Assembly (NCBI GenBank): GCA_963702475.1
Contig: CAVPCT010000006.1
Location: forward strand, 160,001 to 224,000
Length of the DNA stretch: 64,000 nucleotides
Source of the DNA: an uncultured Thermoleophilia bacterium
GTDB lineage: Bacteria > Actinomycetota > Thermoleophilia > UBA2241
Direction of reading: 5' to 3'
Translations under genes and position numbers: made by a program
The notes under the pieces: model-generated
What the model saw: the letters and a program-made list of their open reading frames with translations, nothing else
The model's database searches: none
Told to the model about the DNA's origin: nothing
Part shown: in pieces, positions 33,298-58,659 of the stretch
Position numbering within the stretch: the first letter of the stretch is position 1
Layout of the letters: every line of letters begins with the position of its first letter

Positions 33298-34821
33298 CTA
33301 CTTCCTCGTCACCTTCACCGTCAGCGTCGTGGTTCGCAGCCCCGAGGAAAGGAGTGGCTGCGCCGCGTCGTTGACGACGTCGGAGTCCGAACACGTCAGG
33401 CGCACCTTGTACGTGCCCGGCTTGGCGTAGACGTGGGTGGCCTTGGCATCGCCGGGCGCCGCGGTGACGGTGCCCTCGCTGGAGCCGTCGCCGAACCACC
33501 AGGCGAACGTGTTGGGCGACGCGTTGCCCCACTTGAGCAGCTTGGAGGCGTCGAAGCGCACCTTCTTGCCGGCCACCAGGTTCTTCACCGTGAAGCCGGC
33601 GTCGTACGGCTTCTCGAGCCCGCGCAGCTTGGACTCCTCACCGGCGATCAGGTCGCGGTCCACGTTCACGCGGGCCCAACCGAACCAGTGGCTGTAGTCC
33701 GGGTTGATGTGGTAGGCGCCCTTGAACGTGTTCACGTGGTCGTACTTGTAGGTGTTGAAGAACAGCTGCTCGATGGCCGACGTACCACCGTAGAGCTGCT
33801 GGCCGCCGAGCACGAGGTTCGGCCCGAAGACCGGGTTCGGCGCGCGGACGAGTGGCATCGGGTCGAGCAGGTCGTCCCACCACAGGCCGCGGATCCTCAT
33901 GACAGGGTCCCAGAGCAGCGTGTCGACGTCCATCTTGATCTGGTCGGCGCCCTCGAGGTTCTTCTTCACGAACGAGCCCGCGTGGCAGTCACCGCAGATG
34001 ACGGACATCTTGGCGCGCTTGGCGTCGAAGTCGGCCTGGGTGATCACGCGCATCGGGACGGGCAGCGCCACGCCCGGCAGCCGCGCGCCCTGCGCGACGG
34101 TCCCGATGGTGAGGTTGGTGGAGACGTCGTGCACCAGCGGCTTGCCGGCGCCGTTCTCGGACTCGGGCATGTGACAGGTGACGCAGGTGGGCGCGCGGTC
34201 GGGGTTCCCGTTCACGCGGTTCTTCTCGGTCACGTAGACCACGCCGTGCTTGCTCTTGGTCCACATGTCGATCTGCTCGTGGTCGGGGCCCATGTGGCAG
34301 GTGCCGCAGGCCTCGGGCTCCCTCGCCTCTTCGGCCGAAAAGGTGTGGCGCGTGTGGCAGGAGTCGCACTTGCCCACGCTGCCGTCGGCGTACACGTAGC
34401 CGATGTTGTGGCAGCGCTCGCACATCTCGTACCGCTCGGCCTCGGGCATGACCCTGTAGCGCGCCGCTGCCGTCATGCGCGTCCAGCCTATGGCGTGCTT
34501 GTTGGTGTAGTTGCCGGCCGCGTCCTTGTGCGCGAACTCGGCGTACTCGCCGGGGTGGCAGCCGGTCTGCGCGCAGGTGCTCGCCGGCACCTTGCCCTCG
34601 TTGGTCAGGATGACGCTGTGGTCAGCGCCGTGGCAGGTCGCGCAGGTGACGCCCTGCTTGGACATGGCGCCGTCCTTGTACTGCGTGACGATGCCCGGCG
34701 TGAGCGACGTGTGGCAGTCGACGCACTCTTGTGGCGTGTAGGTGGCCGCCGCGGCTGCTCCTGCGAGCAGCAGCGCCAGCACCACGGCAGCGACAAGGCA
34801 CAGCACGGTTCTTCGGATCAT
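33298..34821 (-). CDS. Secreted HAO-family octaheme cytochrome c with C-terminal PKD domain
   Basis: Signal peptide; 7 CxxCH plus one CX4CH; CDSCHTRHTFS..EAREP..CGTCHMGPDH..SKHG HAO-family signature; WWFGDG..THVYAKPGTYKVRL PKD motif. Confidence 0.88.
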   Translation of the reverse strand: MIRRTVLCLVAAVVLALLLAGAAAAATYTPQECVDCHTSLTPGIVTQYKDGAMSKQGVTCATCHGADHSVILTNEGKVPASTCAQTGCHPGEYAEFAHKDAAGNYTNKHAIGWTRMTAAARYRVMPEAERYEMCERCHNIGYVYADGSVGKCDSCHTRHTFSAEEAREPEACGTCHMGPDHEQIDMWTKSKHGVVYVTEKNRVNGNPDRAPTCVTCHMPESENGAGKPLVHDVSTNLTIGTVAQGARLPGVALPVPMRVITQADFDAKRAKMSVICGDCHAGSFVKKNLEGADQIKMDVDTLLWDPVMRIRGLWWDDLLDPMPLVRAPNPVFGPNLVLGGQQLYGGTSAIEQLFFNTYKYDHVNTFKGAYHINPDYSHWFGWARVNVDRDLIAGEESKLRGLEKPYDAGFTVKNLVAGKKVRFDASKLLKWGNASPNTFAWWFGDGSSEGTVTAAPGDAKATHVYAKPGTYKVRLTCSDSDVVNDAAQPLLSSGLRTTTLTVKVTRK

Positions 34822-34956
34822 AGGCTCCCCCTCTCCCCTCTTGTGCGGATTCGCACAAGCTATCCCACAGGAAGGAGTCTGGTCCGGGCCTTGACTTCAG
34901 ACAAGTACATGCGCCGTTCATGGTCTCAAGCGCATGTCGGGGGCCGTACCCGGCCG

Positions 34957-43028: not shown

Positions 43029-43388
43029 ATGGGCCTCGACACGTACCCGTCGCGATCTGCTCACGAGATCGCGCTCACGCTGGAGGATGAGCTGTCGCTG
43101 GCGGCACTCGACCTGCGCCTGTGCGAGTGGCTCGGCTATGGCGCGTTCCGGGGGAAGGTGTATCTGGACGTCGTCGACCGGGTCGCCGCCGTCTGCCTCA
43201 CCCAGGACTGGATCGCGCCCGAGGAGGTGGCCGAGATGGCGGCCGCGTTCGAGGCGTGCGATGTGGAGGAGGTCGTGCGCGCGTCCGCCCGCGACCACTA
43301 CCCAGTCACGGGCGAGGAGGTCAGGTCTCTGTCGAGGCTGTTCCGCACGTGCGCCGATCTCGGTCTCGGTCTCATCGGCGACTACTGA
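43029..43388 (+). CDS. Hypothetical acidic protein (MGLD start)
   Basis: GAGGGGGAG RBS, GC3-rich codons, followed by hairpin. Confidence 0.75.
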   Translation: MGLDTYPSRSAHEIALTLEDELSLAALDLRLCEWLGYGAFRGKVYLDVVDRVAAVCLTQDWIAPEEVAEMAAAFEACDVEEVVRASARDHYPVTGEEVRSLSRLFRTCADLGLGLIGDY

Positions 43389-43398
43389 GCAGGAGCTG

Positions 43399-43430
43399 AG
43401 GGCGGGGAGTGCGACCGCACTCCCCGCCCT
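43399..43430. terminator. Stem-loop between convergent genes
   Basis: agggcggggagtgcg / cgcactccccgccct inverted repeat. Confidence 0.7.
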
Positions 43431-43534
43431 TGCCCGCCGGAGCTCCGACTCACTGGCCGGTGTGCCGGTTCCGCGACGGCTTCGCGGCCGGCGGTCCGCA
43501 GTGGCGCCGCCGGCCGGGTCTCACCTGTTCCGGG

Positions 43535-45401
43535 TCAGATGCCCAGCGCGGCGCGCTTCTCGGCGATGTGCGCGAGCATCGCAGCCACGGCCTCCTTGGC
43601 GTTCGTCTCCACGGCGAGCTTGCCGCCGGTCACGCTCGGCAGGTCCTGGGTCACGAGCTTCACCAGGTTCGGTGCGCCGGTGACGAACGGCACCGGGTTC
43701 ACGTGCGTGTACAGGCCGAAGGCCAGCGCGGCCATGGCGTCGATGGTGGCCTTCTGCTCCATGTACTCGGGGGCAGTGGCCACGACCGGCAGGTCGCAGG
43801 TGTCCACGCCGAGGGCGTCGGCGATGGCGCCGACGAGCAGCAGGATGCGGCCGGTGTCGGTGCAGGTGCCGAAGCTGAGCACCGGCGGGATGCCGAGCAG
43901 CTCGCAGACGGCCTTGAGGCCGGGGCCGGCGAGCTCCTTGGCCTCGGCGGCCTCGAGGCCCGCGACCTGCAGGCCGGCGTTGCCGCAGCCCATGGCCAGC
44001 ACGAGCACGTCGTTCTTGATGAGTTCCTTGGCGATGGACACGGTGTGGCTGTCCTGGTCGCAGTCGCGCAGGGTGGTGCAGCTCACGAGGCCGCAGACGC
44101 CCTTGAGCGTGCCGTTCTTGATGACGTCGAGCAGCGGGTCGAGGCTGCCGCCCAAGGCGCCGAGGATCGACTCGGTGCTGAAGCCGGCCACGGCGTCGCC
44201 GACCGGGAGCTTGGGCACGTAGGTGTTCTTGGCGCGGCGCGTCGGGAAGTTGGCGATCGCCATGTCCATGAGCTGCTGCGCCTGCTCGGCCGCCTTGGTC
44301 GGCCTCGAAGACCACGGGCGCCTCGGCGCCGTCGATGCCGACGAGGTCGCTGACCGGGACGAGCAGGGTGCCGTGGGCGGCGCACAGGGCGCCCAGGGTC
44401 GGCACGACGCAGTTCATGTCGGCGGCGAACACGTCGATGCCGCCGGTGGCCACGGCCAGCTCCTCCGTGAGCCAGTTGCCGGTGAGGCCGACGAAGACGT
44501 CGTCCACCTCGTAGCGCTGGATGAGCTCCTGGCCGGTCTCGATGGAGCCGACGATGCGCAGGCCCTTGGCCCCGGCCGCCTTGGCCTTCTCCTGTACGGC
44601 CGCGGCGTGCGCGGCCTCGATCAGCGTGGCGCCCACCATGGGCTCGTGGCCGTTGACGACGACGTTGACGTACTCGCCGTCGATGATGCCGAGGTCGACC
44701 TTGACGGCGTGCGGCTGCGGCGTGCCGAAGAGAGCGTCCTGGGCGAGCTCGAGCGGGATCTGCGCGCCGTAGGCGGTGGCGATGCCGAGGCGCAGGCCCT
44801 TGAGGGCGAGGGAGACGTAGTTGCCGTCCACGTTGGTGAGGCAGCTCGAGGTGGCGTACATGTTCTCGTGGAACACGCCGCCCGGCATGATGCCGAGTTC
44901 CTTCCACTTGGCCACGCGCTTGGCCGGCGCCAGCCTCTCGACCAGCGGCGACGGGCTCTGGTGGTCGCGGTTGAACTCCTGAAGCACGGCATCGGCCACG
45001 CGCTTCGGCAGCGTGTCGCGCGGCTCGACGGCCTCGTCGAGCACGCCCGCGAGCAGCTCGAGCTTGCTCCAGTCCTTGATCTGGAAGGTGCCGCCGTCCT
45101 GCGCCGTCCGGAGGGTCTTCATGACCTCGACGGCGTGGTACGTGTAGGTGGCGGTGCCCATGGTGTTCTGCAGCAGGAAGTTGCGCATCGCCATGCCGTC
45201 GGCGTCGATGCCGCAGACGCCGCGCGGCGCCTTCTCGGTGAGCCGGCACGGGCCCTGCGAGCACAGCGAGCAGCGGATGCCCTTCTCGCAGAAGCCGCAG
45301 CGGCTGCCCATGGCGTCCATGCGGTCGAACGACGTCTCCTTCTCGTCGTCCCGCGTCTGCTCGAGCATCGTGTGGACTGAAGCGTGGTAACTGTCGGCCA
45401 T
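43535..45401 (-). CDS. cooS: CooS-family (CODH/HCP fold) protein, CooS-V/clade D-like (+1 frameshift near 44303)
   Basis: CGFC, CSLCSQGPC..GVCG, NGHEP, GSIETG in place of GICCTG, DMNC, LVSC, MGCG, FGTCTD, EQKA. Confidence 0.9.
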
Positions 45402-45462
45402 GGCTCCTCCTGGGAGGTTTGGAAGGTTCAGGCGCCGGCGGCGCCGACCGGACGAGACAACG

Positions 45463-45488
45463 ACGGCGCCGGCCTCAGCCGGCGCCGT
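45463..45488. other. Intercistronic hairpin between ferredoxin and cooS
   Basis: acggcgccggc-ctca-gccggcgccgt. Confidence 0.55.
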
Positions 45489-45514
45489 ACGGGGTCAGGT
45501 GGGGAGGTGCGGCG

Positions 45515-45898
45515 TCAACCGTGGATGAGGGCGGGGAGGCACTTGACGCACACCCAGGTGCTCTCGCCCTTGGTGCGGCACGGGAACAGGATGGCGTCCA
45601 TCTCGCTGCGGCCGCAGTTGAAGCAGTGCTGGTTGAGTGCCACGGCGGCCGCGAGCTTGTCGGCGACGTTCTGCGCGGCGGCGTCTTCGTCGAAATCGGG
45701 GGCTTCGCGCTTCTCCACGGTGAGGGCTCCTTCCGGACAGACGGCGAGGCAGAAGCCGGCGCCGTCGCACAGCTCCTCCTTCATCACCGTGGCCTTGCCG
45801 TCGACGATCTCGATGGCGCCTTCGGCGCAGGGGGTGACGCAGTCGCCACACCCGGTGCAGAGGTCTTCGTCGATCTTGATGATGCTGCGGACCGGCAT
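45515..45898 (-). CDS. Ferredoxin with C-terminal Cys-rich (Zn-ribbon-like) domain
   Basis: IIKIDEDLCTGCGDCVTPCAEGAI..CDGAGFCLAVCP; CFNC..C..CVKC. Confidence 0.88.
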   Translation of the reverse strand: MPVRSIIKIDEDLCTGCGDCVTPCAEGAIEIVDGKATVMKEELCDGAGFCLAVCPEGALTVEKREAPDFDEDAAAQNVADKLAAAVALNQHCFNCGRSEMDAILFPCRTKGESTWVCVKCLPALIHG

Positions 45899-45988
45899 TC
45901 CTGCTCGCTTTCGTCTTCTGGTGATGGGAAGGCGCCGGTGGCGGCTTCGCGCGCCGGCGCCTCGATTGGCACTCTTCTGATGGTGTCT

Positions 45989-46031
45989 ACTGTACGCTTG
46001 TGCGCCGTTGCTCAACCTTGACCTGCGTCAA
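45989..46031 (-). promoter_or_regulatory. Crp/Fnr-type operator TTGAC-N4-GTCAA with -10 TACAGT (class II spacing)
   Basis: Perfect palindrome at 46018-46031, centred 30.5 nt upstream of the first base of the -10 hexamer (45994 to 45989). Confidence 0.72.
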
Positions 46032-46124
46032 TGGTGAGGAACGGCAGCCCGGCGCCACGGCCGCGAGTGACGGGGCGCGACAGCGCAGGGGTAGGATTGA
46101 GCCCCGCCGTCGACGGCGGGTCTC

Positions 46125-47375
46125 ATGATCACGGCCGAGACAGACATCCGCATCATGTTCCTCTCCGCGCTGGCGCGAGCCTTGGCGCGCTTCGGAGAGG
46201 ACTCCGATTCCATTGAACGCGACCTCGTCGGGTGCGCGGCGCGTCTCGGCTTGCCGGGGCAGTTCTACGCGACCCCGACCATGGTGATGGCCTCGTTCGG
46301 CAGCGACGAACAACCGCGCACGATCCTCCTGAGGATCCACGAAGGCATGATCGACCTCGAGGCTCTCGACCGGGTCAACGCCGTGCGCAAGGGCGTGATG
46401 AGCGGCGAGAAGACGGCGCCTCAAGCACTCGCCGAGCTCAACCTGATCGCCGCCGCCCCCGCGCGCTTCCCCTGGGTCGTCCGCGTGCTCGCCTCCGGGC
46501 TGGGAGCCGGCTCGTTCGCCATCTTTCTCGGAGGTGAGTGGCCGGCGTTCCTCGCGGCGTTGCCCGTGGGCCTGGTGGTAGGGGCCGTCGTGCTCATCTC
46601 GCAGCGGTACGCTCGCCTGCACCCGCTCGCAGCACTGCTCGGCGCCTTCGCCGCAGCCGTCACGACGCTCGCGGTGGGACACGTGATCCGCCACTTCAGC
46701 CTGCCGACCGTGGCGCTGGCCGGGCTCATTCTCCTTTTGCCCGGCCTGGCCATCACGACAGGTGTGGCGGAGCTGGCGGCGCGGCAACTCACCTCCGGTA
46801 CGGCGCGGCTCGCCGGCGCCACCGTCACACTGGTCAACCTCGGGGTCGGCAGCTTCCTGGGGTTCGCCGTCGTGACCCGCCTGGACTGGGTGCCGCGCAC
46901 GCTGGCCATCGCCTCTCACCCGTCGGCCGTGGCCGTGCTCGTGGCGCTGGTCGCCACGGCCCTGTCTCTGCACGTGTCCGCCAACGCCCGCACGCGCGAC
47001 TGGCCGCTCACTCTCGGGGCCGTCATCGTGGCGCTCGCCGGGGCGCGCTTCGGCGCCTGGCTCTTCGGGGCGACGCTCGGTGTGGTGGTCGCGTCGTTCG
47101 CGCTGGGCCTCTGTGCGAACGGCTACGCGCGGCTGAGCCGGCGCCCGGCCGCGCTGGTGCTGATCCCCGGGCTGGCCGTCCTGGTGCCCGGGGCCCTCGG
47201 CCTGCGCGGCGTCAGCGAGTTCCTGCGCACGGCAGCCGGAGGCGTCAACGTGCTCATCGGCGTCGTCATCATCGCCGCGGGCCTCGTGGTGGGACTGCTC
47301 GTGGCCGACGCCCTCCTGCCGGCGCGTCCATCGGACGAGGGCGACGGCGTGCCGGGCGAAGGAGCGGCGGAGTAG
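46125..47375 (+). CDS. Threonine/serine exporter ThrE family
   Basis: Soluble N-terminus, LLLPGLAIT..ELA..SG.ARL, LIPGLAVLVPG, about 10 TM. Confidence 0.85.
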   Translation: MITAETDIRIMFLSALARALARFGEDSDSIERDLVGCAARLGLPGQFYATPTMVMASFGSDEQPRTILLRIHEGMIDLEALDRVNAVRKGVMSGEKTAPQALAELNLIAAAPARFPWVVRVLASGLGAGSFAIFLGGEWPAFLAALPVGLVVGAVVLISQRYARLHPLAALLGAFAAAVTTLAVGHVIRHFSLPTVALAGLILLLPGLAITTGVAELAARQLTSGTARLAGATVTLVNLGVGSFLGFAVVTRLDWVPRTLAIASHPSAVAVLVALVATALSLHVSANARTRDWPLTLGAVIVALAGARFGAWLFGATLGVVVASFALGLCANGYARLSRRPAALVLIPGLAVLVPGALGLRGVSEFLRTAAGGVNVLIGVVIIAAGLVVGLLVADALLPARPSDEGDGVPGEGAAE

Positions 47376-48144: not shown

Positions 48145-48735
48145 ATGAGCGGCACACACGAGCACGGAGGTACGAAGAGGCGGGACGGAGGAGGACTGGA
48201 CACGCCGGCCCGGGCGGCGGGGGCACGGCAGGGCGACGGCGACGCCGTGGACGCCATCATCGCCGCCTGGAACCGGGAGCGGCCGGAGCTGGACGTGACG
48301 AGCGTCGGGGTGGTCTCGCGCGTCACCCGGCTCTCGGCGCGGTTCACGCAGGCGCTGGAGGCCAACTTCGCCCGGCACCGGTTGACCAAGGCTTCGTTCG
48401 AGGCGCTGGCCGCCCTGCGTCGCAGCGGAGCGCCGTACCGCCTGTCGCAGACTGCGCTCATGCGTGAGCTCTCGCTGACGCCCGGCACCGTGAGCGTACG
48501 CATCCGCCGCCTGGTGGACGACGGGCTCGCCCTGCGACGGGACGACCCCGGCGACAGGCGCGGCGTGATCGTCGAGCTGACGGAGGCGGGCCTCGACGCG
48601 TTCGAGGACGTCGTGGCCGACCACCTGGCGACCGAGCGGCGCCTGCTTGCGGCCCTGGACGCCGGCGAGCAGGAGCTGCTCGCCGGCCTGTTGCGCCGTC
48701 TGCTGCTCCACGTCCCCGCCGGTGGCGAGCCGTGA
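48145..48735 (+). CDS. MarR family regulator (TamR/PecS-like)
   Basis: DAVDAIIAAWNRERPELD, LAALRRSGAPYRL, DPGDRRGVIVELT. Confidence 0.9.
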   Translation: MSGTHEHGGTKRRDGGGLDTPARAAGARQGDGDAVDAIIAAWNRERPELDVTSVGVVSRVTRLSARFTQALEANFARHRLTKASFEALAALRRSGAPYRLSQTALMRELSLTPGTVSVRIRRLVDDGLALRRDDPGDRRGVIVELTEAGLDAFEDVVADHLATERRLLAALDAGEQELLAGLLRRLLLHVPAGGEP

Positions 48736-49929
48736 GCGCCGTCGAGCAGTCGCACGGCGACGGCCCCCGTCGCGTGCTGCCCGTGCTGCTGCGCGACGCC
48801 GGCGAGGAGCGTCACCCGTCGTGGCTCGAGCTCTTCTTCGACCTGTGCTTCGTGGCCGCCGTCGCCGCGTTGGCGTCCGGTCTCTACCACCACCCCGACC
48901 TGCGGGGCGTGCTCGTGTTCGCGGGACTGTTCGTGCCGGTGTGGTGGGCGTGGATGGGGTACACGTGGTACGCATCCGCCTTCGACAACGACGACGTGGT
49001 GTTCCGCATCGCCTGGCTGGGCGCCATGCTGCTCGTCATCGCGCTGGCGTCGCAGGTGGGGGCGGTGACCGAGGGGCGCGGCGCGGGCTTCGCGCTCGTG
49101 TACGGGCTGCTGCAGGCCCTGATCGCGCTGCTGTTCCTCAGGGCGCGGCGTCACGAGACGGCCGCCAGGGCGTTCGCCACCCGGTACGCCGCGGGGGATG
49201 CCGCTGGCGCCGCCGTGTGGCTGGCGTCGGCCGTCGTGCCGGCGCCGGCGCAGTACGCCCTCTGGGCGCTGGGCATGGTCGTGCTCATGGCGACGCCGCC
49301 CGTGGCCGTGATGGCGTACCACGGCAAGGCCTTCAACGCGGCCCACATCGCGGAGAGGTACGGCCTGTTCACGTTGATCGTGCTCGGCGAGTCGGTGGTG
49401 GCGGTGGCCGCCGCGCTCGGCGGCGAGGCGGGGCTGCGCGGCGGCGTCACGGCGGCGCTCGGCTTCGGCGCCGCCGCCTGCCTCTGGTGGGTGTACTTCG
49501 GCTCCGTGCGCTGGTCTTCGCTCACGCCGCGACAGCCTGCTGCGCTCCTTCACCTGGGGGTACGGCCACCTGTTCGTGTTCGCCGGTGTGGCGGCGACGG
49601 CCGTCGGCGTGCACCTCGCGGCGGACGTGGCGGCCGGACACGTGGGCATGACCACTGCGGCGCGCTGGATCTACGCCGGCGGCCTCGCCGCGGTCCTCCT
49701 GGCGCTGGTGGCGGTCCACTTCGTGACGGTGATGCGCTGGGACGCACTCGCCGCCGTGCGCACCGGCGCCGCCGCGGCGCTCGCCGTGCTGGCGGCGAGT
49801 GCAGGCGCGGTCGGCCCCGTGTGGTTCAGCGCACTCGCGTTCTCCGTCCTGCTGGTCCTGGCGGTCGCGGAGGCCCGCATCCTCGGCCTCGCCGCCCCGG
49901 GAGAGTCCTCCCCCCGGATCGGAGGGTAG
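48732..49929 (+). CDS. ltrA: Low temperature requirement protein A family (+1 frameshift near 49527)
   Basis: WLELFFDLCFV, ERYGLFTLIVLGE, WWVYF; continues WGYGHLFVFAG in next frame. Confidence 0.87.
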
Positions 49930-52812: not shown

Positions 52813-53577
52813 TCAGTCTTGCGCCAGGCGGTGGAGCTTGTCGAAGCTGAGGATCTCGATGAGCTCGTGATCGCTGCTCATGCGGATGACCTCGGCGCGT
52901 TTGAGCCTGTCGAAGGTGCGGCTGAGCGTTTCCGGGACCGTGCCGAGCCGGGCGGCCAGCTCGCGCTTGCTCGTCGGCAGCTTGACCACGCGAGGGTGGT
53001 CGGGCTGGAGCGCCGGCCTGTGCCCGCCTGGTCCGGTCTGGCCCTCGGCCGCGTCGGCCGTCTCTCTCGGCAGGTCGAGTTGCTCGTCGGCGAGCGCCAG
53101 CAGGTAGCGCGCGAGCCGCGCCGGTACGGGCAGCAGGAGCTCCTCCACGCGGCGGTTGAGCAGTCCCAGCAGGTATGCCATGGAGGCGATCATGTTGACG
53201 GCGAACTGGGGCTGCGCCGCCAGAAGCGCGAGCACGTCATCGGTCTCGAACCGGTACAGCTTGCAGTCGGTCATGGTCTCGGTGCTCGCGGGGTACTCGT
53301 CGTGGAAGAGCGCCGCCTCGGCGAAGGTCTGGCCGGCGTTCACGTGCCGCACGGTGGCGGTGCGACCGTCACGGAGGAGCTTGAAGACCTTCACGCGGCC
53401 CTTCGACAGCAGGAAGAGGGCGCGCGCGTGGTCACCCTGCAGGAAGAGCGTGCTCTCGGCCGGAAGGTCGAACGGCCGGGCGATCTGCGCCAGCGAGCGC
53501 AGCTGCTCGTCGTCGAGGCGCGCGAACGTGGCCGCAACGCGCAGGTCGGCGACGATCTCGTCGAGGGTCGGTGCCAT
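52813..53577 (-). CDS. Crp/Fnr family regulator (HcpR/Dnr-like)
   Basis: LFLQGD, GRVKVFK, FAEAALF..YPAS, HTH LAARLGTVPETLSR; leaderless TATACT-6-ATG. Confidence 0.9.
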   Translation of the reverse strand: MAPTLDEIVADLRVAATFARLDDEQLRSLAQIARPFDLPAESTLFLQGDHARALFLLSKGRVKVFKLLRDGRTATVRHVNAGQTFAEAALFHDEYPASTETMTDCKLYRFETDDVLALLAAQPQFAVNMIASMAYLLGLLNRRVEELLLPVPARLARYLLALADEQLDLPRETADAAEGQTGPGGHRPALQPDHPRVVKLPTSKRELAARLGTVPETLSRTFDRLKRAEVIRMSSDHELIEILSFDKLHRLAQD

Positions 53578-53611: not shown

Positions 53612-55321
53612 TCAGGCGCGGCGCGAGGCGCCGTCGCCCCGGCGCCCCAGTGTGCCTCCTTGCGCGAAGGCCGGATCGGCCGGCATGACGATGATGGCCG
53701 CCGGCCCCTCGAGCGGACACTTGTACTCGCAGATCCCGCAGCCGATGCAGCGGTCGGCGAGGACACGGGGCCGCTGCACGTAGTCCTGGCGGCCGTCCGG
53801 CTGAGTCGCCACCCGGCGCTCGTCCAGCACCACGGCCTTGGGCGCCACGGGGCACATCTCCTGGCAGACGATGCAGGGCTTGTCCTGGGCCCACGGCAGG
53901 CAGCGGTCCGTGTCGATGACAGCTACACCGAGCACCTGTTTCCGCTTCGCCTCCAGCGGCAGTCTGGGGATCGCCCCCGATGGACACACGTTGCCGCAGG
54001 CGGTGCACGAGTAGTCGCAGTAGCCCAGGCGGGAGGCCAGCACGGGGGTCCACAGGCCTTCCAGGCCCGCCTCCAGAAGAGCCGGTTGAAGACCGGAGGT
54101 GGGGCAGACCTTCATGCACTCGCTGCAGCGCAGGCAGTGGGAGAGGAATGCGCTCTCGTTCTGCGCGCCCGGCGGGCGGATCAGGCGCGCGCTCGTGGTG
54201 CCGCGCCAGACGCCGGTGCCCAGGAGGGCGACGGCGCCGACGCCGGCCGCCGCGGCCGTGAGGAACTCACGGCGGCCGGGGTCGTACTCCTGCCACGGGG
54301 CGGGCCGGTAGGCGGCGCCCAGCGTCATCGCGTCCTTCTCCGGACAGGCGACGAAGCAGTCGAGGCACAGGGTGCACTCGGAGGTGACGACGGCGGGACG
54401 GGTGGGCGCGGAGGCCGCGGGGCCGTCCGCGGCCGCGCCGGCGGAGCCGGCCTCCGCCGCGGGTCCACGGCCACCCGCCGGCTCGATCGCGTCGAGCCGG
54501 CACGACCGCACGCACGCGCCGCAGTCGGTGCATCCGTGACCCACCAGCGGGCGGAGCACCTGGACCTTGGCCAGGAGGCCGAGCAGCGCCCCGAGCGGGC
54601 ACAGGTAACGGCACCAGAAGCGGTCGGCCAGGGCGTTGAGCAGCACGACGGCGACGAAGAGCAGGAAGAGGGCGACGCCTTGAGCGAAGTGCGGCTGGTA
54701 GAAGGGGAGCACCTTGCCGCGCAGGGCGGACTCGACCCAGTCGACGAGCCCTCCGCCCACGCCCCAGCCGACGAGGGTCCGCTCGACGGAGTCGACCGCG
54801 TACACGAAGGCGGGCAAGAGCGACGTGGTGGCCGTGCGCGTGAGCAGCGAGATCGGGTCGAGGACCATCAGCGTGAGGCCGCCGAAGGTCGCCATCACGG
54901 CGATGACGCCGAGGAGCACGTACTTCGCGCTCTTGAGGCGCGGCGGCAGGCGCGGGCCCAGCCGCCGCGCCGTCTTGAAGCGCGACCACTCGAGGACCGT
55001 GCCGAGGGGGCAGATCCAGCCGCACCACACGCGGCCGAGGACGAGGGCCGCCACGACGGTGACGACGGCAGGCGCCAGGCGTGGCATCCACTCGCGGGCC
55101 GCGAGCATCGTGCCGAAGGCGGCGAGCGGGTCGAAGCGGAAGAAGAGGTCGACCCAGGACGCCGCCTCACGCCGCTGCAACGCCGCGAACAGCAGCGCGA
55201 CGAAGAGGACGAGCGTTACGACCTGCACGGCGCGGCGCGCCCAACGGGCGGCCTTCCAGCCGCCCGTCCGGCGCCGCGCCCCGGCGTCTTCGCCCGTGCG
55301 CGGCGGCGCATCCAGTCTCAT
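53612..55321 (-). CDS. Membrane polyferredoxin (NapH/MauN fused to NapG/MauM-like domain)
   Basis: GRVWCGWICPLG, RFWCRYLCPLG, multiple CxxCxxCxxxC, RREFL, IRPPGA..CLRCSECMKVCP. Confidence 0.85.
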   Translation of the reverse strand: MRLDAPPRTGEDAGARRRTGGWKAARWARRAVQVVTLVLFVALLFAALQRREAASWVDLFFRFDPLAAFGTMLAAREWMPRLAPAVVTVVAALVLGRVWCGWICPLGTVLEWSRFKTARRLGPRLPPRLKSAKYVLLGVIAVMATFGGLTLMVLDPISLLTRTATTSLLPAFVYAVDSVERTLVGWGVGGGLVDWVESALRGKVLPFYQPHFAQGVALFLLFVAVVLLNALADRFWCRYLCPLGALLGLLAKVQVLRPLVGHGCTDCGACVRSCRLDAIEPAGGRGPAAEAGSAGAAADGPAASAPTRPAVVTSECTLCLDCFVACPEKDAMTLGAAYRPAPWQEYDPGRREFLTAAAAGVGAVALLGTGVWRGTTSARLIRPPGAQNESAFLSHCLRCSECMKVCPTSGLQPALLEAGLEGLWTPVLASRLGYCDYSCTACGNVCPSGAIPRLPLEAKRKQVLGVAVIDTDRCLPWAQDKPCIVCQEMCPVAPKAVVLDERRVATQPDGRQDYVQRPRVLADRCIGCGICEYKCPLEGPAAIIVMPADPAFAQGGTLGRRGDGASRRA

Positions 55322-55383
55322 CCAGGTACCTCCGCGCCGCGCTCAGCCTGCGGCACGATGGTACTCCCGTGCGCCGCGCCGAC

Positions 55384-57385: not shown

Positions 57386-57535
57386 ATGAATGCGATCAGG
57401 GTGCCGGCGAGCCCTCACTGTGAGGGCGGATCAGGGGCGTGTGAGCGGCGCCACGGCCTCACAGCGGCCGGACTGCGCGTGCGCGCGCTCACGGCCGCGG
57501 TCTTGCAGTCGTTGCGGGCGGGGACGACGAGGTGA
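57386..57535 (+). CDS. Possible 49-aa leader ORF
   Basis: AAAGG RBS-like sequence, ATG 57386, stop overlaps GTG of dehydrogenase (GTGA). Confidence 0.3.
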   Translation: MNAIRVPASPHCEGGSGACERRHGLTAAGLRVRALTAAVLQSLRAGTTR

Positions 57536-58659
57536 CGGCCGAGGATCTCGCCGCCAACGGTGTGAGGCCGGCGGTCGGCACGATGCAGGCCGTCCTCGTC
57601 ACGGCGGTCGGAGCGTACTCGGTCGGCGAGCTGCCGGTGCCCTTGCCCGGACCGGGCGAAGTCCTCGTCCGGGTGGGCGTGACCGGCCTCTGCCGCACCG
57701 ACCTCAAGATCATCCGGCATGGGCACCGCGACCTGGTGCTGCCCCGCGTGCCCGGCGAGGAGGTCGTCGGGGAGATCGTGGCGCTGGGGGAGGAGGCGCC
57801 GGCGGCCGCAGGCCCTTCCGGCGCGTCCGCCTCGGAGCGCGCCTTCGCCGTCGGCGATCGCGTGTACGTGTACCCCGGCGTGTGGTGCGGTGAGTGCCCG
57901 AGCTGCCGGCGCGGCGCCGAAAACCTGTGTCGCGCCATGCGCATCATGGGCTTCCACCGCGACGGCGGCTTCGCCGAGTACGTCGCGGTCCCGCTGCAGA
58001 GCCTGATCCCGGTACCTGACGGCCTGCGCGACGAGGAGGCCGTGTTCGCGGAGCCGCTGAGCTGCTGCCTGAACGCCCTCGAGCTGGGACGTGTGGGCGA
58101 CGGCGACGCGCTGGGCATCTGGGGGGCCGGCCCGGCCGGCACGCTCCTCTGCCGGGCCGGCGCCCTGCTCGGGGCCGTCCCGTCCGTCGTCGAGCCCGAT
58201 CGGCGCCGGAGCGACTACGTCGTCGGCGCCCCCGGCACGCCGCCCGCGGCGACGTTCTCGCCCGAGCCGCCGGCCCAGGTCGACGTCGCCATCGTGGCCG
58301 TCGGCGACCCGGCGGCGTACGAGCAGGCTCTCGCCGCTCTGGCGCCTCGCGGCCGGATCGTCGTCTTCTCCGGCCTGCTGCCGGCCGCTGGACGACGCCT
58401 TCCACGTGAGCCTCAACAGCGTGCACTACCACGAGCACACACTGGTCGGCGCCTACGGCTGCTGCTTCCGTCACGGCGAGGACGCGCTCGCCCTGCTCGC
58501 CGGCGGCCGCCTGCGCGTCGGACGATCTCATCAGCCACCGCCTGCCGCTTGCCGACCTGAAGGCCGGCCTCGACGCCGTCGCCGGCCGCGCCGGCATGAA
58601 GGTCCACCTGTACCCGGGCGCCGTGCCCGCCGACCTGCCACCCCGAGGAGACCACATGA
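57532..58659 (+). CDS. Zn-dependent medium-chain dehydrogenase (threonine/sorbitol DH-like), +1 frameshifts near 58390 and 58521; 3' end uncertain
   Basis: GLCRTD, PGEE (GHE variant), CGECPSC..NLC, DGGFAEY, AEPLSC, GAGPAG, VHYHE..GAYG, LISHRLPL, MKV. Confidence 0.85.

Follow-up and report, generated by a model that had tools for sequence, protein, structure and literature searches.

A CooS-V-type protein of group D-1 with a ferredoxin partner and a conserved Crp/Fnr-type operator in Thermoleophilia: a candidate member of an HcpR-type regulon

The 64,000-nucleotide stretch of an uncultured Thermoleophilia bacterium analyzed here (contig CAVPCT010000006.1, positions 160,001 to 224,000; hereafter the window, with 71.65% G+C) carries a two-gene operon, fdx-cooS, which encodes a small ferredoxin and a protein built on the scaffold of carbon monoxide dehydrogenase (CODH). 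Judged from its sequence, the CooS protein is a clear orthologue of CooS-V, or group D-1, and neither a functional Ni,Fe-CODH nor a hybrid cluster protein (HCP, Hcp). The operon is preceded by a Crp/Fnr-type operator that is conserved in the related loci, and a candidate regulator with a fitting recognition helix is encoded nearby. The best reading of these observations, given an even chance, is that of a ferredoxin-fed, HCP-like reductase belonging to a nitrogen-oxide regulon of the HcpR type and acting on a predicted substrate.

The closest solved structure is that of Carboxydothermus CooS-V (7b7q), which matches at 710 bits with about 60% identity over the full length, against 405 bits for the next CODH (6t7j) and 29 bits for HCP. 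A previous reading of the window from its sequence only had described the protein as CooS-V-like, with Glu in place of the C-cluster Cys, TATYTYH in place of the AxHxxH proton relay and a CxxC-type D-cluster, and all three features are present in the translation. Glu288 occupies the position of Cys295 (RIVGSIETGQE), Tyr86 that of the acid-base His93 (GTATYTYHAVE), and the D-cluster motif is CxxC, type III (RCGFCEKGIRC; translation stretches RCGFCEKGIRCSLCSQGPCR and RCGFCEKGIRCSLC). The pattern described for group D-1 comprises H-E-C-C-C-C ligands, Tyr at the position of His93, an equivalent of Lys563 and a Glu two residues before that Lys (Inoue et al., PMC6344411). The window protein shows this pattern in full (H252, E288, C331, C441, C472, C513, Y86, K550 and E548), and the same residues are invariant in an alignment of 20 members of the clade. 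Against the CODH family TIGR01702 the two halves of the gene, described below, sum to about 718 bits (cut-off 478), whereas the Hcp family TIGR01703 gives 36.4 bits (cut-off 360.8).

Related loci were collected in one scan of species-representative genomes, from which 80 cooS loci, designated by L numbers, were kept. Thirty of them constitute the close group: L001 to L029, which are 71-88% identical and mostly labelled Thermoleophilia, together with L038. Glu is found at the motif in 80 of the 81 locus segments that span it, the exception being a second, divergent cooS of L033. Among 7999 scored candidates, a protein search with the read-through CooS identified 4533 related proteins, drawn from all CODH clades; the best 120 all possess the D-1 Glu. 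When these 120 are taken together with the query, SIET is found in 121 of 121 sequences and the CxxC D-cluster in 116 of 121. Members of the CooC, CooJ, CooT and AcsB families, whose absence next to cooS had been pointed out in the sequence-only reading, found no match among the 43 window open reading frames (ORFs) scanned with Pfam (9 + 34; some short ORFs lay outside the scan), and no CO machinery is seen among 21 cluster representatives of the ORFs from Thermoleophilia loci. Carboxydothermus CooS-V was found to hold an Fe/S/O hybrid cluster and to catalyze neither the oxidation of CO nor the reduction of CO2; both this protein and the C295E mutant of CODH-II are devoid of Ni and of CO activity (Jeoung et al., PMC9311411). 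By analogy, the window enzyme most likely carries an HCP-like Fe/S/O hybrid cluster.

The cooS gene is located on the minus strand and is read in two frames. Frame A (44298..45401, 368 codons) covers the N-terminal part and, read from 45401 to 44298, matches positions 1-367 of NCBIfam TIGR01702 with 398.5 bits and Pfam Prismane with 242 bits; it carries the CxxC D-cluster motif, the B-cluster Cys, Tyr86, His252 and Glu288. Frame B (43535..44296, 253 codons plus stop) covers the C-terminal part and matches positions 368-621 of TIGR01702 between 44296 and 43538 with 319.6 bits; it carries Cys441, Cys472, Cys513, Glu548 and Lys550 of the hybrid-cluster site. The break is a single-base indel rather than a deletion or fusion, because the two halves abut exactly at TIGR01702 positions 367/368. 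One extra base at 44297..44300, GAGGCC[G]ACCAAGG on the minus strand, shifts the reading into the +1 frame. This base is missing from all 27 blastn alignments with 25 related loci, in which 96 nt around the break were compared and in which the relatives read FEATKAA. After correction of the one base, cooS is readable as one gene. The read-through protein used for comparison (P0001, 621 amino acids) was obtained by a four-letter step one codon downstream of the real break, and two of its residues differ from those of the relatives. The best 120 of the 4533 related proteins are 60-96% identical to it and mostly 621-629 amino acids long, with a dozen shorter or longer, and 105 of these 120 cover the full query. 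Thus the cooS features listed in the sequence-only reading are located where it had placed them on the minus strand, while the one-base split had gone unmentioned.

A second split gene, ltrA, is found about 4 kb away (48732-49929, plus strand), with a frameshift near 49520-49545; Pfam LtrA positions 3-232 are matched in one frame and positions 242-355 in another. Beyond cooS and ltrA, a GC3 frame plot was too noisy to reveal further frameshifts, and an ADH-like gene at 57445-58560, suspected of one, was found to possess one continuous coding frame.

The ferredoxin gene fdx (45515..45898, minus strand; Pfam Fer4_7/Fer4_6/Fer4_10) encodes 127 amino acids and contains the stretch MPVRSIIKIDEDLCTGCGDC. 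Its N-terminal Fe-S domain contains CxxCxxCxxxC followed by CDGAGFCxxxCP, its C-terminal domain four Cys in the arrangement CxxC...CxxC, and this Cys pattern is kept in an alignment of 30 sequences. The upstream ferredoxin noticed in the sequence-only reading is a constant companion of cooS, as fdx is found directly 5' of cooS in all 29 close-group loci that hold DNA upstream of cooS. The two genes form a two-gene operon, since cooS is followed by two GC-rich hairpins and a convergent ORF. The inverted repeats (43399..43516; 15-nt arms at 43399-43430 and 10-nt arms at 43485-43516) lie between cooS and the convergent ORF and may act as a transcription stop. A scan of 43300-46200 for consensus promoters and terminators gave nothing, including no terminator with a T-run, and says little at this G+C content, as it seeks hexamers and T-runs of the E. 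coli type. The convergent ORF (43029-43388, plus strand, 119 amino acids) shows good codon bias, has no Pfam or NCBIfam match and is not seen in the related loci.

Several smaller features accompany the operon. The 114-nt spacer between fdx and cooS contains a GC stem of 9 bp with a 4-nt loop at 45465-45486 on the minus strand (GGCGCCGGC TGAG GCCGGCGCC), which may set the ratio of the two products. A leader motif, GCGAAAGCGAGCAG, is located at 45899-45925 (minus strand) immediately 5' of the fdx start codon and recurs at the corresponding position in about 15 related loci; many relatives have a longer leader block, CACTGTCACC..GTGAAAACCACGCGAAAGCGAGCAGTGCATG, in common. Rfam gave only sub-threshold chance matches for the leader and intergenic region, and the ESM Atlas gave small unnamed Fer4 clusters for the ferredoxin, with no functional lead. 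Duplications are encountered as well: in L003 (2288-6034) a degenerate cooS in fragments separates fdx from the intact cooS, L009 has a second cooS fragment at a contig end (1-156), and L004 and L010 are two contigs of one metagenome-assembled genome, each with its own operator-fdx-cooS.

The operator TTGAC-N4-GTCAA (TTGACCTGCGTCAA, 46018..46031) is centred 126 nt upstream of the fdx ATG. It is the sole perfect match in the 64 kb, where 0.01 would be expected (100 shuffles), and the 30 close-group loci, 399,164 nt in all, contain no perfect site beyond those upstream of fdx. The operator is present in every one of the 27 related loci whose sequence extends 87 nt or more upstream of fdx, in 24 of them in perfect form and in three with one mismatch (L013, L024 and L026). 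The perfect palindrome reported in the sequence-only reading is therefore both present and conserved in relatives, which that reading had named as one of the points on which its proposal could fall. Between constant half-sites, the four central bases differ from locus to locus (GCAG, GCAC, ACAG, CGAG, CCAC, GAAG, GCAA, CTTG, CTAA, among others). Such a pattern marks a site bound by a protein and not recent shared ancestry, and on this comparative evidence the palindrome is a real regulatory site. Two-mismatch sites (14 found, 8.9 expected) were taken as chance, and a recurrent one-mismatch site, TTCACCGGCGTCAA, found in L004, L010, L016 and L022, was set aside as coding, as it lies inside rlmL-like frames in L004 and L010.

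A candidate -10 hexamer, TACAGT, is located 23 nt after the palindrome (45989..45994, minus strand). A TAnnnT hexamer begins 22-24 nt beyond the palindrome in 27 of 28 sequences, and at the other offsets from 0 to 39 it occurs only once. Class II operators, centred near -41.5 and overlapping the -35 region, are an established promoter geometry of Crp/Fnr regulators. The fixed spacing of TAnnnT would put the centre of the palindrome near -41.5/-42.5, that is, in class II geometry. The class II spacing asserted in the sequence-only reading could not be read from the window by itself; it emerges from the alignment of the loci, which supports transcription of fdx-cooS from a class II promoter with a predicted start.

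A Crp/Fnr-family regulator of about 254 amino acids, counted from Met116 of the open frame, is encoded at 52813..53577 on the minus strand (Pfam cNMP_binding and HTH_Crp_2), 6.8 kb from operator-fdx-cooS. Half of the close-group loci (15 of the 30) have a homologue no more than 7 kb upstream of fdx; in seven loci (L001, L018, L021, L023, L024, L026 and L038) the regulator gene is directly adjacent and ends just before the palindrome. No substitution occurs in the recognition helix LGTVPETLSR among the 16 homologues aligned, not even in that of L038, which is 35% identical. The regulator possesses no N-terminal Cys cluster of the FNR type, as the window protein has one Cys and no Cys column reaches 90% conservation in the 16 sequences. 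The HcpR-subgroup motif wyTTGACnnnnGTCAArw goes with Ser or Pro at CRP position 180 and a retained Glu181, and has been found upstream not only of hcp and frdX paralogues but of nrfHA and nar as well (Rodionov et al., PMC1274295). The window operator equals this published consensus, TTGACnnnnGTCAA (PMC1274295), and the helix residues P-E-T-L-S-R fit Ser/Pro180, Glu181 and Arg185 in CRP numbering when aligned by eye; by that alignment the helix matches the residues published for HcpR regulators binding TTGACnnnnGTCAA. In C. difficile, HcpR activates frdX-hcp on exposure to NO, and knock-down of either gene leads to NO sensitivity (PMC12915319). Box, helix and gene order taken together appear to be a close match to HcpR-frdX-hcp, the regulator being classed as HcpR-type by box and helix only. 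In this respect the hcp-style operon under a Crp/Fnr box proposed in the sequence-only reading holds, with an order like that of frdX-hcp, the HcpR consensus box and Pro-Glu in the candidate regulator.

At residues of about 170-205 (52990-53110, minus strand) the regulator has an insertion rich in Ala, Gly and Pro that separates the dimerisation helix from the helix-turn-helix; its length varies from 0 to about 45 residues, and it is absent in L021, L023, L024 and L026. Just upstream of the regulator gene, a stop-to-stop frame at 53612..55342 (minus strand) encodes a fused membrane polyferredoxin like NapH-NapG (NCBIfam, Pfam Fer4_5), with 112.5 bits for NapG at residues 353-561 and 81-86 bits for NapH in the N-terminal part, all below cut-off. 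The order napH-crp is found in L001, L005, L012, L013 and L028, and crp-napH in L025; a DUF362 gene precedes the NapH-NapG-like gene in L001, L005 and L025. A NapH/NosR-like membrane protein beside a Crp/Fnr regulator recalls pairs of the RdhC/CprK type.

A candidate second member of the regulon, judged from its upstream sequence, is an octahaem cytochrome c of the hydroxylamine oxidoreductase (HAO) family, encoded at 33298..34821 on the minus strand (Pfam Multi-haem_cyto and PKD); it has a signal peptide and, at its C terminus, a PKD domain. Its PDB matches comprise 6h5l (104.8 bits), 4n4j (97.9 bits) and 1fgj (67.1 bits), and also 6t5e, 6hif and 4fas, and eight haem motifs were identified, seven of them CxxCH and one CxxxxCH. 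At 34891..34904, centred 76 nt upstream of the ATG, the operator recurs with one mismatch (TTGTCTGAAGTCAA, minus strand); this is the only other window site within one mismatch. The same variant, TTGTC-N4-GTCAA, is found 64 nt before the ATG of the hao-like homologue in L025, the sole related locus that reaches such a gene. Tyr376, part of NPDYSHW, is kept by 4 of 4 homologues; in the PDB alignments the corresponding residue is Tyr in 4n4j and 6t5e and Val in 6h5l. This Tyr may be the cross-link residue of the oxidising enzymes. The third haem motif, CAQTGCH (residue 83; 34570-34590, minus strand), stands against CxxCH in the homologues of L025, L030 and L033; the deviation reflects either an uncommon type of haem site or an in-frame variant, of the assembly or of the sequence. 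The HAO family acts on hydroxylamine. This compound is also the only known substrate of CooS-V (PMC9311411), and it is the one compound on which both protein families are known to act.

HAO-like genes, 43-47% identical to that of the window, are located directly 3' of a Glu-type cooS in the archaeal loci L030 and L033. The latter belongs to 'Ca. Methanoperedens BLZ2', in which CooS is 60% and the eight-haem HAO-like protein 43% identical to the window proteins. The published gene order in this strain is NarG, cooS_1, four further genes, cooS_2 and an eight-haem 'Hao'. Mean transcripts per million were 602 with CH4/NO3-, 3613 with CO/NO3- and 614 with CO/CO2 for cooS_2, and 17, 185 and 39, respectively, for hao; cooS_2 was scored as down-regulated without nitrate, with a log2 fold change of about -2.5 to -3.1 (PMC13079737). 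This expression fits a nitrate-dependent response at least as well as CO oxidation. The data do not separate the two, because CO also speeds nitrate respiration.

At the 50 other D-1 loci, 150 of 171 neighbouring ORFs (two on each side, at least 101 amino acids long) were scanned, and no CooC, CooF, ACS or hydrogenase was found among these 150. The context is mixed, in line with the report that 64% of clade D genes are solitary and their context mixed, with only regulators worth mention (Bohm and Land, PMC13056359). A small Cupin_2 gene of about 105-145 amino acids is found in 7 of the 50 non-Thermoleophilia loci, downstream in L048, L049, L060, L065 and L074 and upstream in L030 and L031, often directly after cooS on the same strand. 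Other neighbours include Rrf2 regulators (L062, L074 and L075), Fur (L077), haem-copper oxidase subunit I (L037, L042 and L043), flavodiiron proteins (L040 and L044), a desulfoferrodoxin-domain protein (L047) and Fer4 proteins of about 250-320 amino acids (L033, L047, L074, L075 and L077), of which those of L047 and L074 align with the window ferredoxin over their N-terminal 80 residues. Taken together, these neighbours lean towards redox and nitrosative stress and are no proof of it.

The proposed mechanism may be outlined as follows. When the cell handles nitrite, NO or hydroxylamine, the Crp/Fnr regulator (52813-53577) would bind TTGAC-N4-GTCAA and drive fdx-cooS from the class II promoter, and it would probably also control the nearby HAO-like octahaem cytochrome. 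Electrons would pass from reduced ferredoxin to the [2Fe-2S] D-cluster, on to the B-cluster and then to the hybrid cluster, at which a reactive nitrogen-oxygen compound, most likely hydroxylamine, would be reduced in the cytoplasm. The regulatory part of this interpretation is well supported by the comparison of loci; for the functional part, the best reading at hand is an Hcp-like role under nitrogen-oxide stress, with chances that stand at about even. A more far-reaching version can be offered only tentatively: D-1 CooS-V and its ferredoxin may constitute the cytoplasmic hydroxylamine (or NO) reductase of an HcpR-type regulon that also comprises the cell-surface HAO-family cytochrome and the NapGH-like quinol module, and may provide anaerobic Thermoleophilia, and in another form Methanoperedens, with an Hcp-independent, ferredoxin-driven nitrite/hydroxylamine branch at very low potential.

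A number of observations weigh against the HCP-like nitrogen-oxide role. The regulator is nearest to FtrB in NCBIfam, at 70 bits and far below cut-off, and in the PDB it best matches 3h3z/3fx3 (70 bits) and DNR (55 bits). The boxes of FNR-, DNR- and FixK-type regulators are nearly identical, and the box therefore does not name the signal. The operator of the hao-like gene has a mismatch, is found in two genomes only and has no -10 element at the fdx spacing; the window copy of cooS is frameshifted; and the Methanoperedens cooS_2 is equated with the Glu-type gene by gene order only. Expression of cooS_2 rises about twofold (log2 fold change about 1) with CO plus nitrate, and the authors see in it a CO oxidiser (PMC13079737). 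Genetic work on M. acetivorans has been read as a possible role of D-1 in CO oxidation (cited in PMC6344411). Carboxydothermus CooS-V is reported to show no detectable NO reduction and a slow turnover of NH2OH, and its cluster potentials lie about 300 mV below those of HCP, from which the authors suggest a different physiological function (PMC9311411). Finally, of all clades, clade D shows the strongest tendency to occur together with HCP (PMC13056359), which argues against a simple replacement of Hcp. The claim of the sequence-only reading that CooS fills the role of Hcp is not supported.

A broader regulon for anaerobic, redox or oxidative stress is a less probable explanation that deserves some weight. 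Here the regulator would sense redox state, oxygen-derived species or a metabolite, and CooS-V would be a low-potential scavenger of peroxide or oxygen, or a redox sensor. HCPs reduce peroxide too, and the very low cluster potentials of CooS-V misfit an HCP-type role (PMC9311411); redox sensing has been suggested for clade D by Bohm and Land (PMC13056359). The flavodiiron, desulfoferrodoxin, Fur and Rrf2 neighbours of other D-1 loci point in the same direction, as do genes for a universal stress protein and for a GAF histidine kinase that lie close to crp in L023, L024 and L026. However, the regulator possesses no Cys cluster of the oxygen-sensing FNR, its box and helix match the HcpR subgroup, the second candidate target belongs to a cytochrome family acting on nitrogen compounds, and expression of the Methanoperedens counterpart tracks nitrate (PMC13079737). 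Far less probable still is a role in CO metabolism, in which CooS would oxidize CO, reduce CO2 or sense CO under a CooA-like regulator. Such a role would accord with the TIGR01702 score of the protein, with the genetics of M. acetivorans and with the induction, under CO plus nitrate, of five cooS genes of Methanoperedens BLZ2, including the one beside hao (PMC13079737). Yet CO without nitrate does not raise the Methanoperedens gene (PMC13079737), CooS-V and the C295E form of CODH-II, as described above, have neither Ni nor CO activity, and clade D genes have no CO phenotype in A. fulgidus and C. autoethanogenum according to the works cited in PMC13056359. In the window protein the equivalents of Cys295 and His93 are replaced, and none of the loci examined has a CooC, CooF, ACS or hydrogenase neighbour. 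The CooA site, TGTCA-N6-TGACA, likewise differs from the half-site TTGAC and counts against a CooA-like regulator.

Independently of these functional alternatives, and compatible with any of them for the clade, cooS of the window may be a real, recent pseudogene and the locus a relic of a system that is intact in its relatives, which is considered less likely than not. In its favour, one base is inserted relative to 25 related loci and outside any long homopolymer, and ltrA, 4 kb off, is also split. Against this, the frame is otherwise of full length, 96% identical to its nearest homologue and with every cluster ligand kept, and the operator, the -10 element and the ferredoxin are all intact. 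Fragmented matches of cooS, fdx or thrE in L003, L008, L013, L028 and L029 are what indel-prone assemblies would give, and two frameshifts per 64 kb are compatible with the error rates of such assemblies. An assembly error is likely because ltrA is split as well, and it is considered about twice as likely as a true pseudogene.

The locus can be compared with several known systems. Carboxydothermus CooS-V (7b7q) shares Glu for Cys295, Tyr for His93, the CxxC [2Fe-2S] D-cluster, Glu two residues before Lys and the absence of CO-related neighbours. The window system differs from it in its high-GC Thermoleophilia background, in its frameshifted copy and in the invariable pairing with the 127-amino-acid ferredoxin and a Crp/Fnr operator, a pairing absent from the consulted parts of the D-1 papers. 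Canonical Ni,Fe-CODH of the CooS-II type shares the fold family, the B-cluster Cys and five of the six C-cluster ligands, but has Cys295, His93, a Cx7C D-cluster and CooC where the window system has Glu, Tyr, CxxC and no CooC. With HcpR-frdX-hcp of delta-proteobacteria, cyanobacteria and clostridia, the window system has in common the operator TTGACnnnnGTCAA, the Pro/Ser-Glu helix residues and, by gene order, a ferredoxin-like gene first and a prismane-family enzyme second; the enzyme is a CODH-scaffold CooS-V and not an Hcp (TIGR01703, 36 bits against 361). A nitrite reduction route by reverse HAO and hybrid cluster protein has been proposed for Nautilia profundicola (PMC2628731). As predicted here, the window would similarly combine an extracytoplasmic octahaem cytochrome of the HAO family with a cytoplasmic prismane-family hydroxylamine reductase, except that the partner would be a ferredoxin-fed CooS-V rather than Hcp with an NADH oxidoreductase, and that the HAO-like protein keeps the conserved Tyr (Y376). 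The cooS_2-hao pair of Methanoperedens BLZ2, a Glu-type cooS directly followed by an eight-haem HAO-like gene and expressed with nitrate, belongs to the nitrate-reductase cluster of that organism. It is archaeal and lacks the Crp operator, and its surroundings include an AsnC-type regulator and a Fer4 protein of greater length.

An HCP-like function for D-1 enzymes was already proposed in 2019 (PMC6344411), was supported structurally in 2022 (PMC9311411) and reappeared in 2026 together with a note that it awaits proof (PMC13056359). The physiological function that the sequence-only reading had offered for this CODH clade was thus in print as an idea, while the regulon evidence now attaches a testable role to it. 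Literature searches revealed no HcpR or Crp/Fnr operator tied to a cooS of the D-1 type, although supplementary tables may hold related observations; in D. desulfuricans a cooS is listed as about twofold up under NO (PMC5701242). In the literature searched, no mention came up of the ferredoxin as fixed partner, of the conserved and probably class II operator, of the regulator that matches it or of the HAO-like gene as co-target, and these findings appear new so far. Clade D-1 is widespread and its members are annotated as CODHs, yet the only member studied shows no CO activity (PMC9311411), and the latest study of genomic context reports no clear pattern for clade D and leaves it undiscussed (PMC13056359). 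To this the Thermoleophilia loci add a fixed ferredoxin partner, a fixed operator and promoter geometry, a candidate regulator with a matching helix and a second candidate target that points towards hydroxylamine or NO, by which the function of D-1 becomes testable on the bench. If true, the hydroxylamine/NO reductase reading would provide the first physiological role for clade D-1 'CODHs'. Caution is also indicated in metagenome surveys, in which D-1 genes are not to be counted as potential for CO oxidation.

The remainder of the window gives some indication of the way of life of the host. An anaerobic redox cluster occupies positions 1-21767 and includes genes for a NiFe hydrogenase large subunit, HycI, HypF, HypD, flavoproteins like HdrA/MvhD and GltD, and CCG-domain proteins. 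By this predicted gene content, the host is an anaerobe with complexes of the flavin-based electron-bifurcation type.

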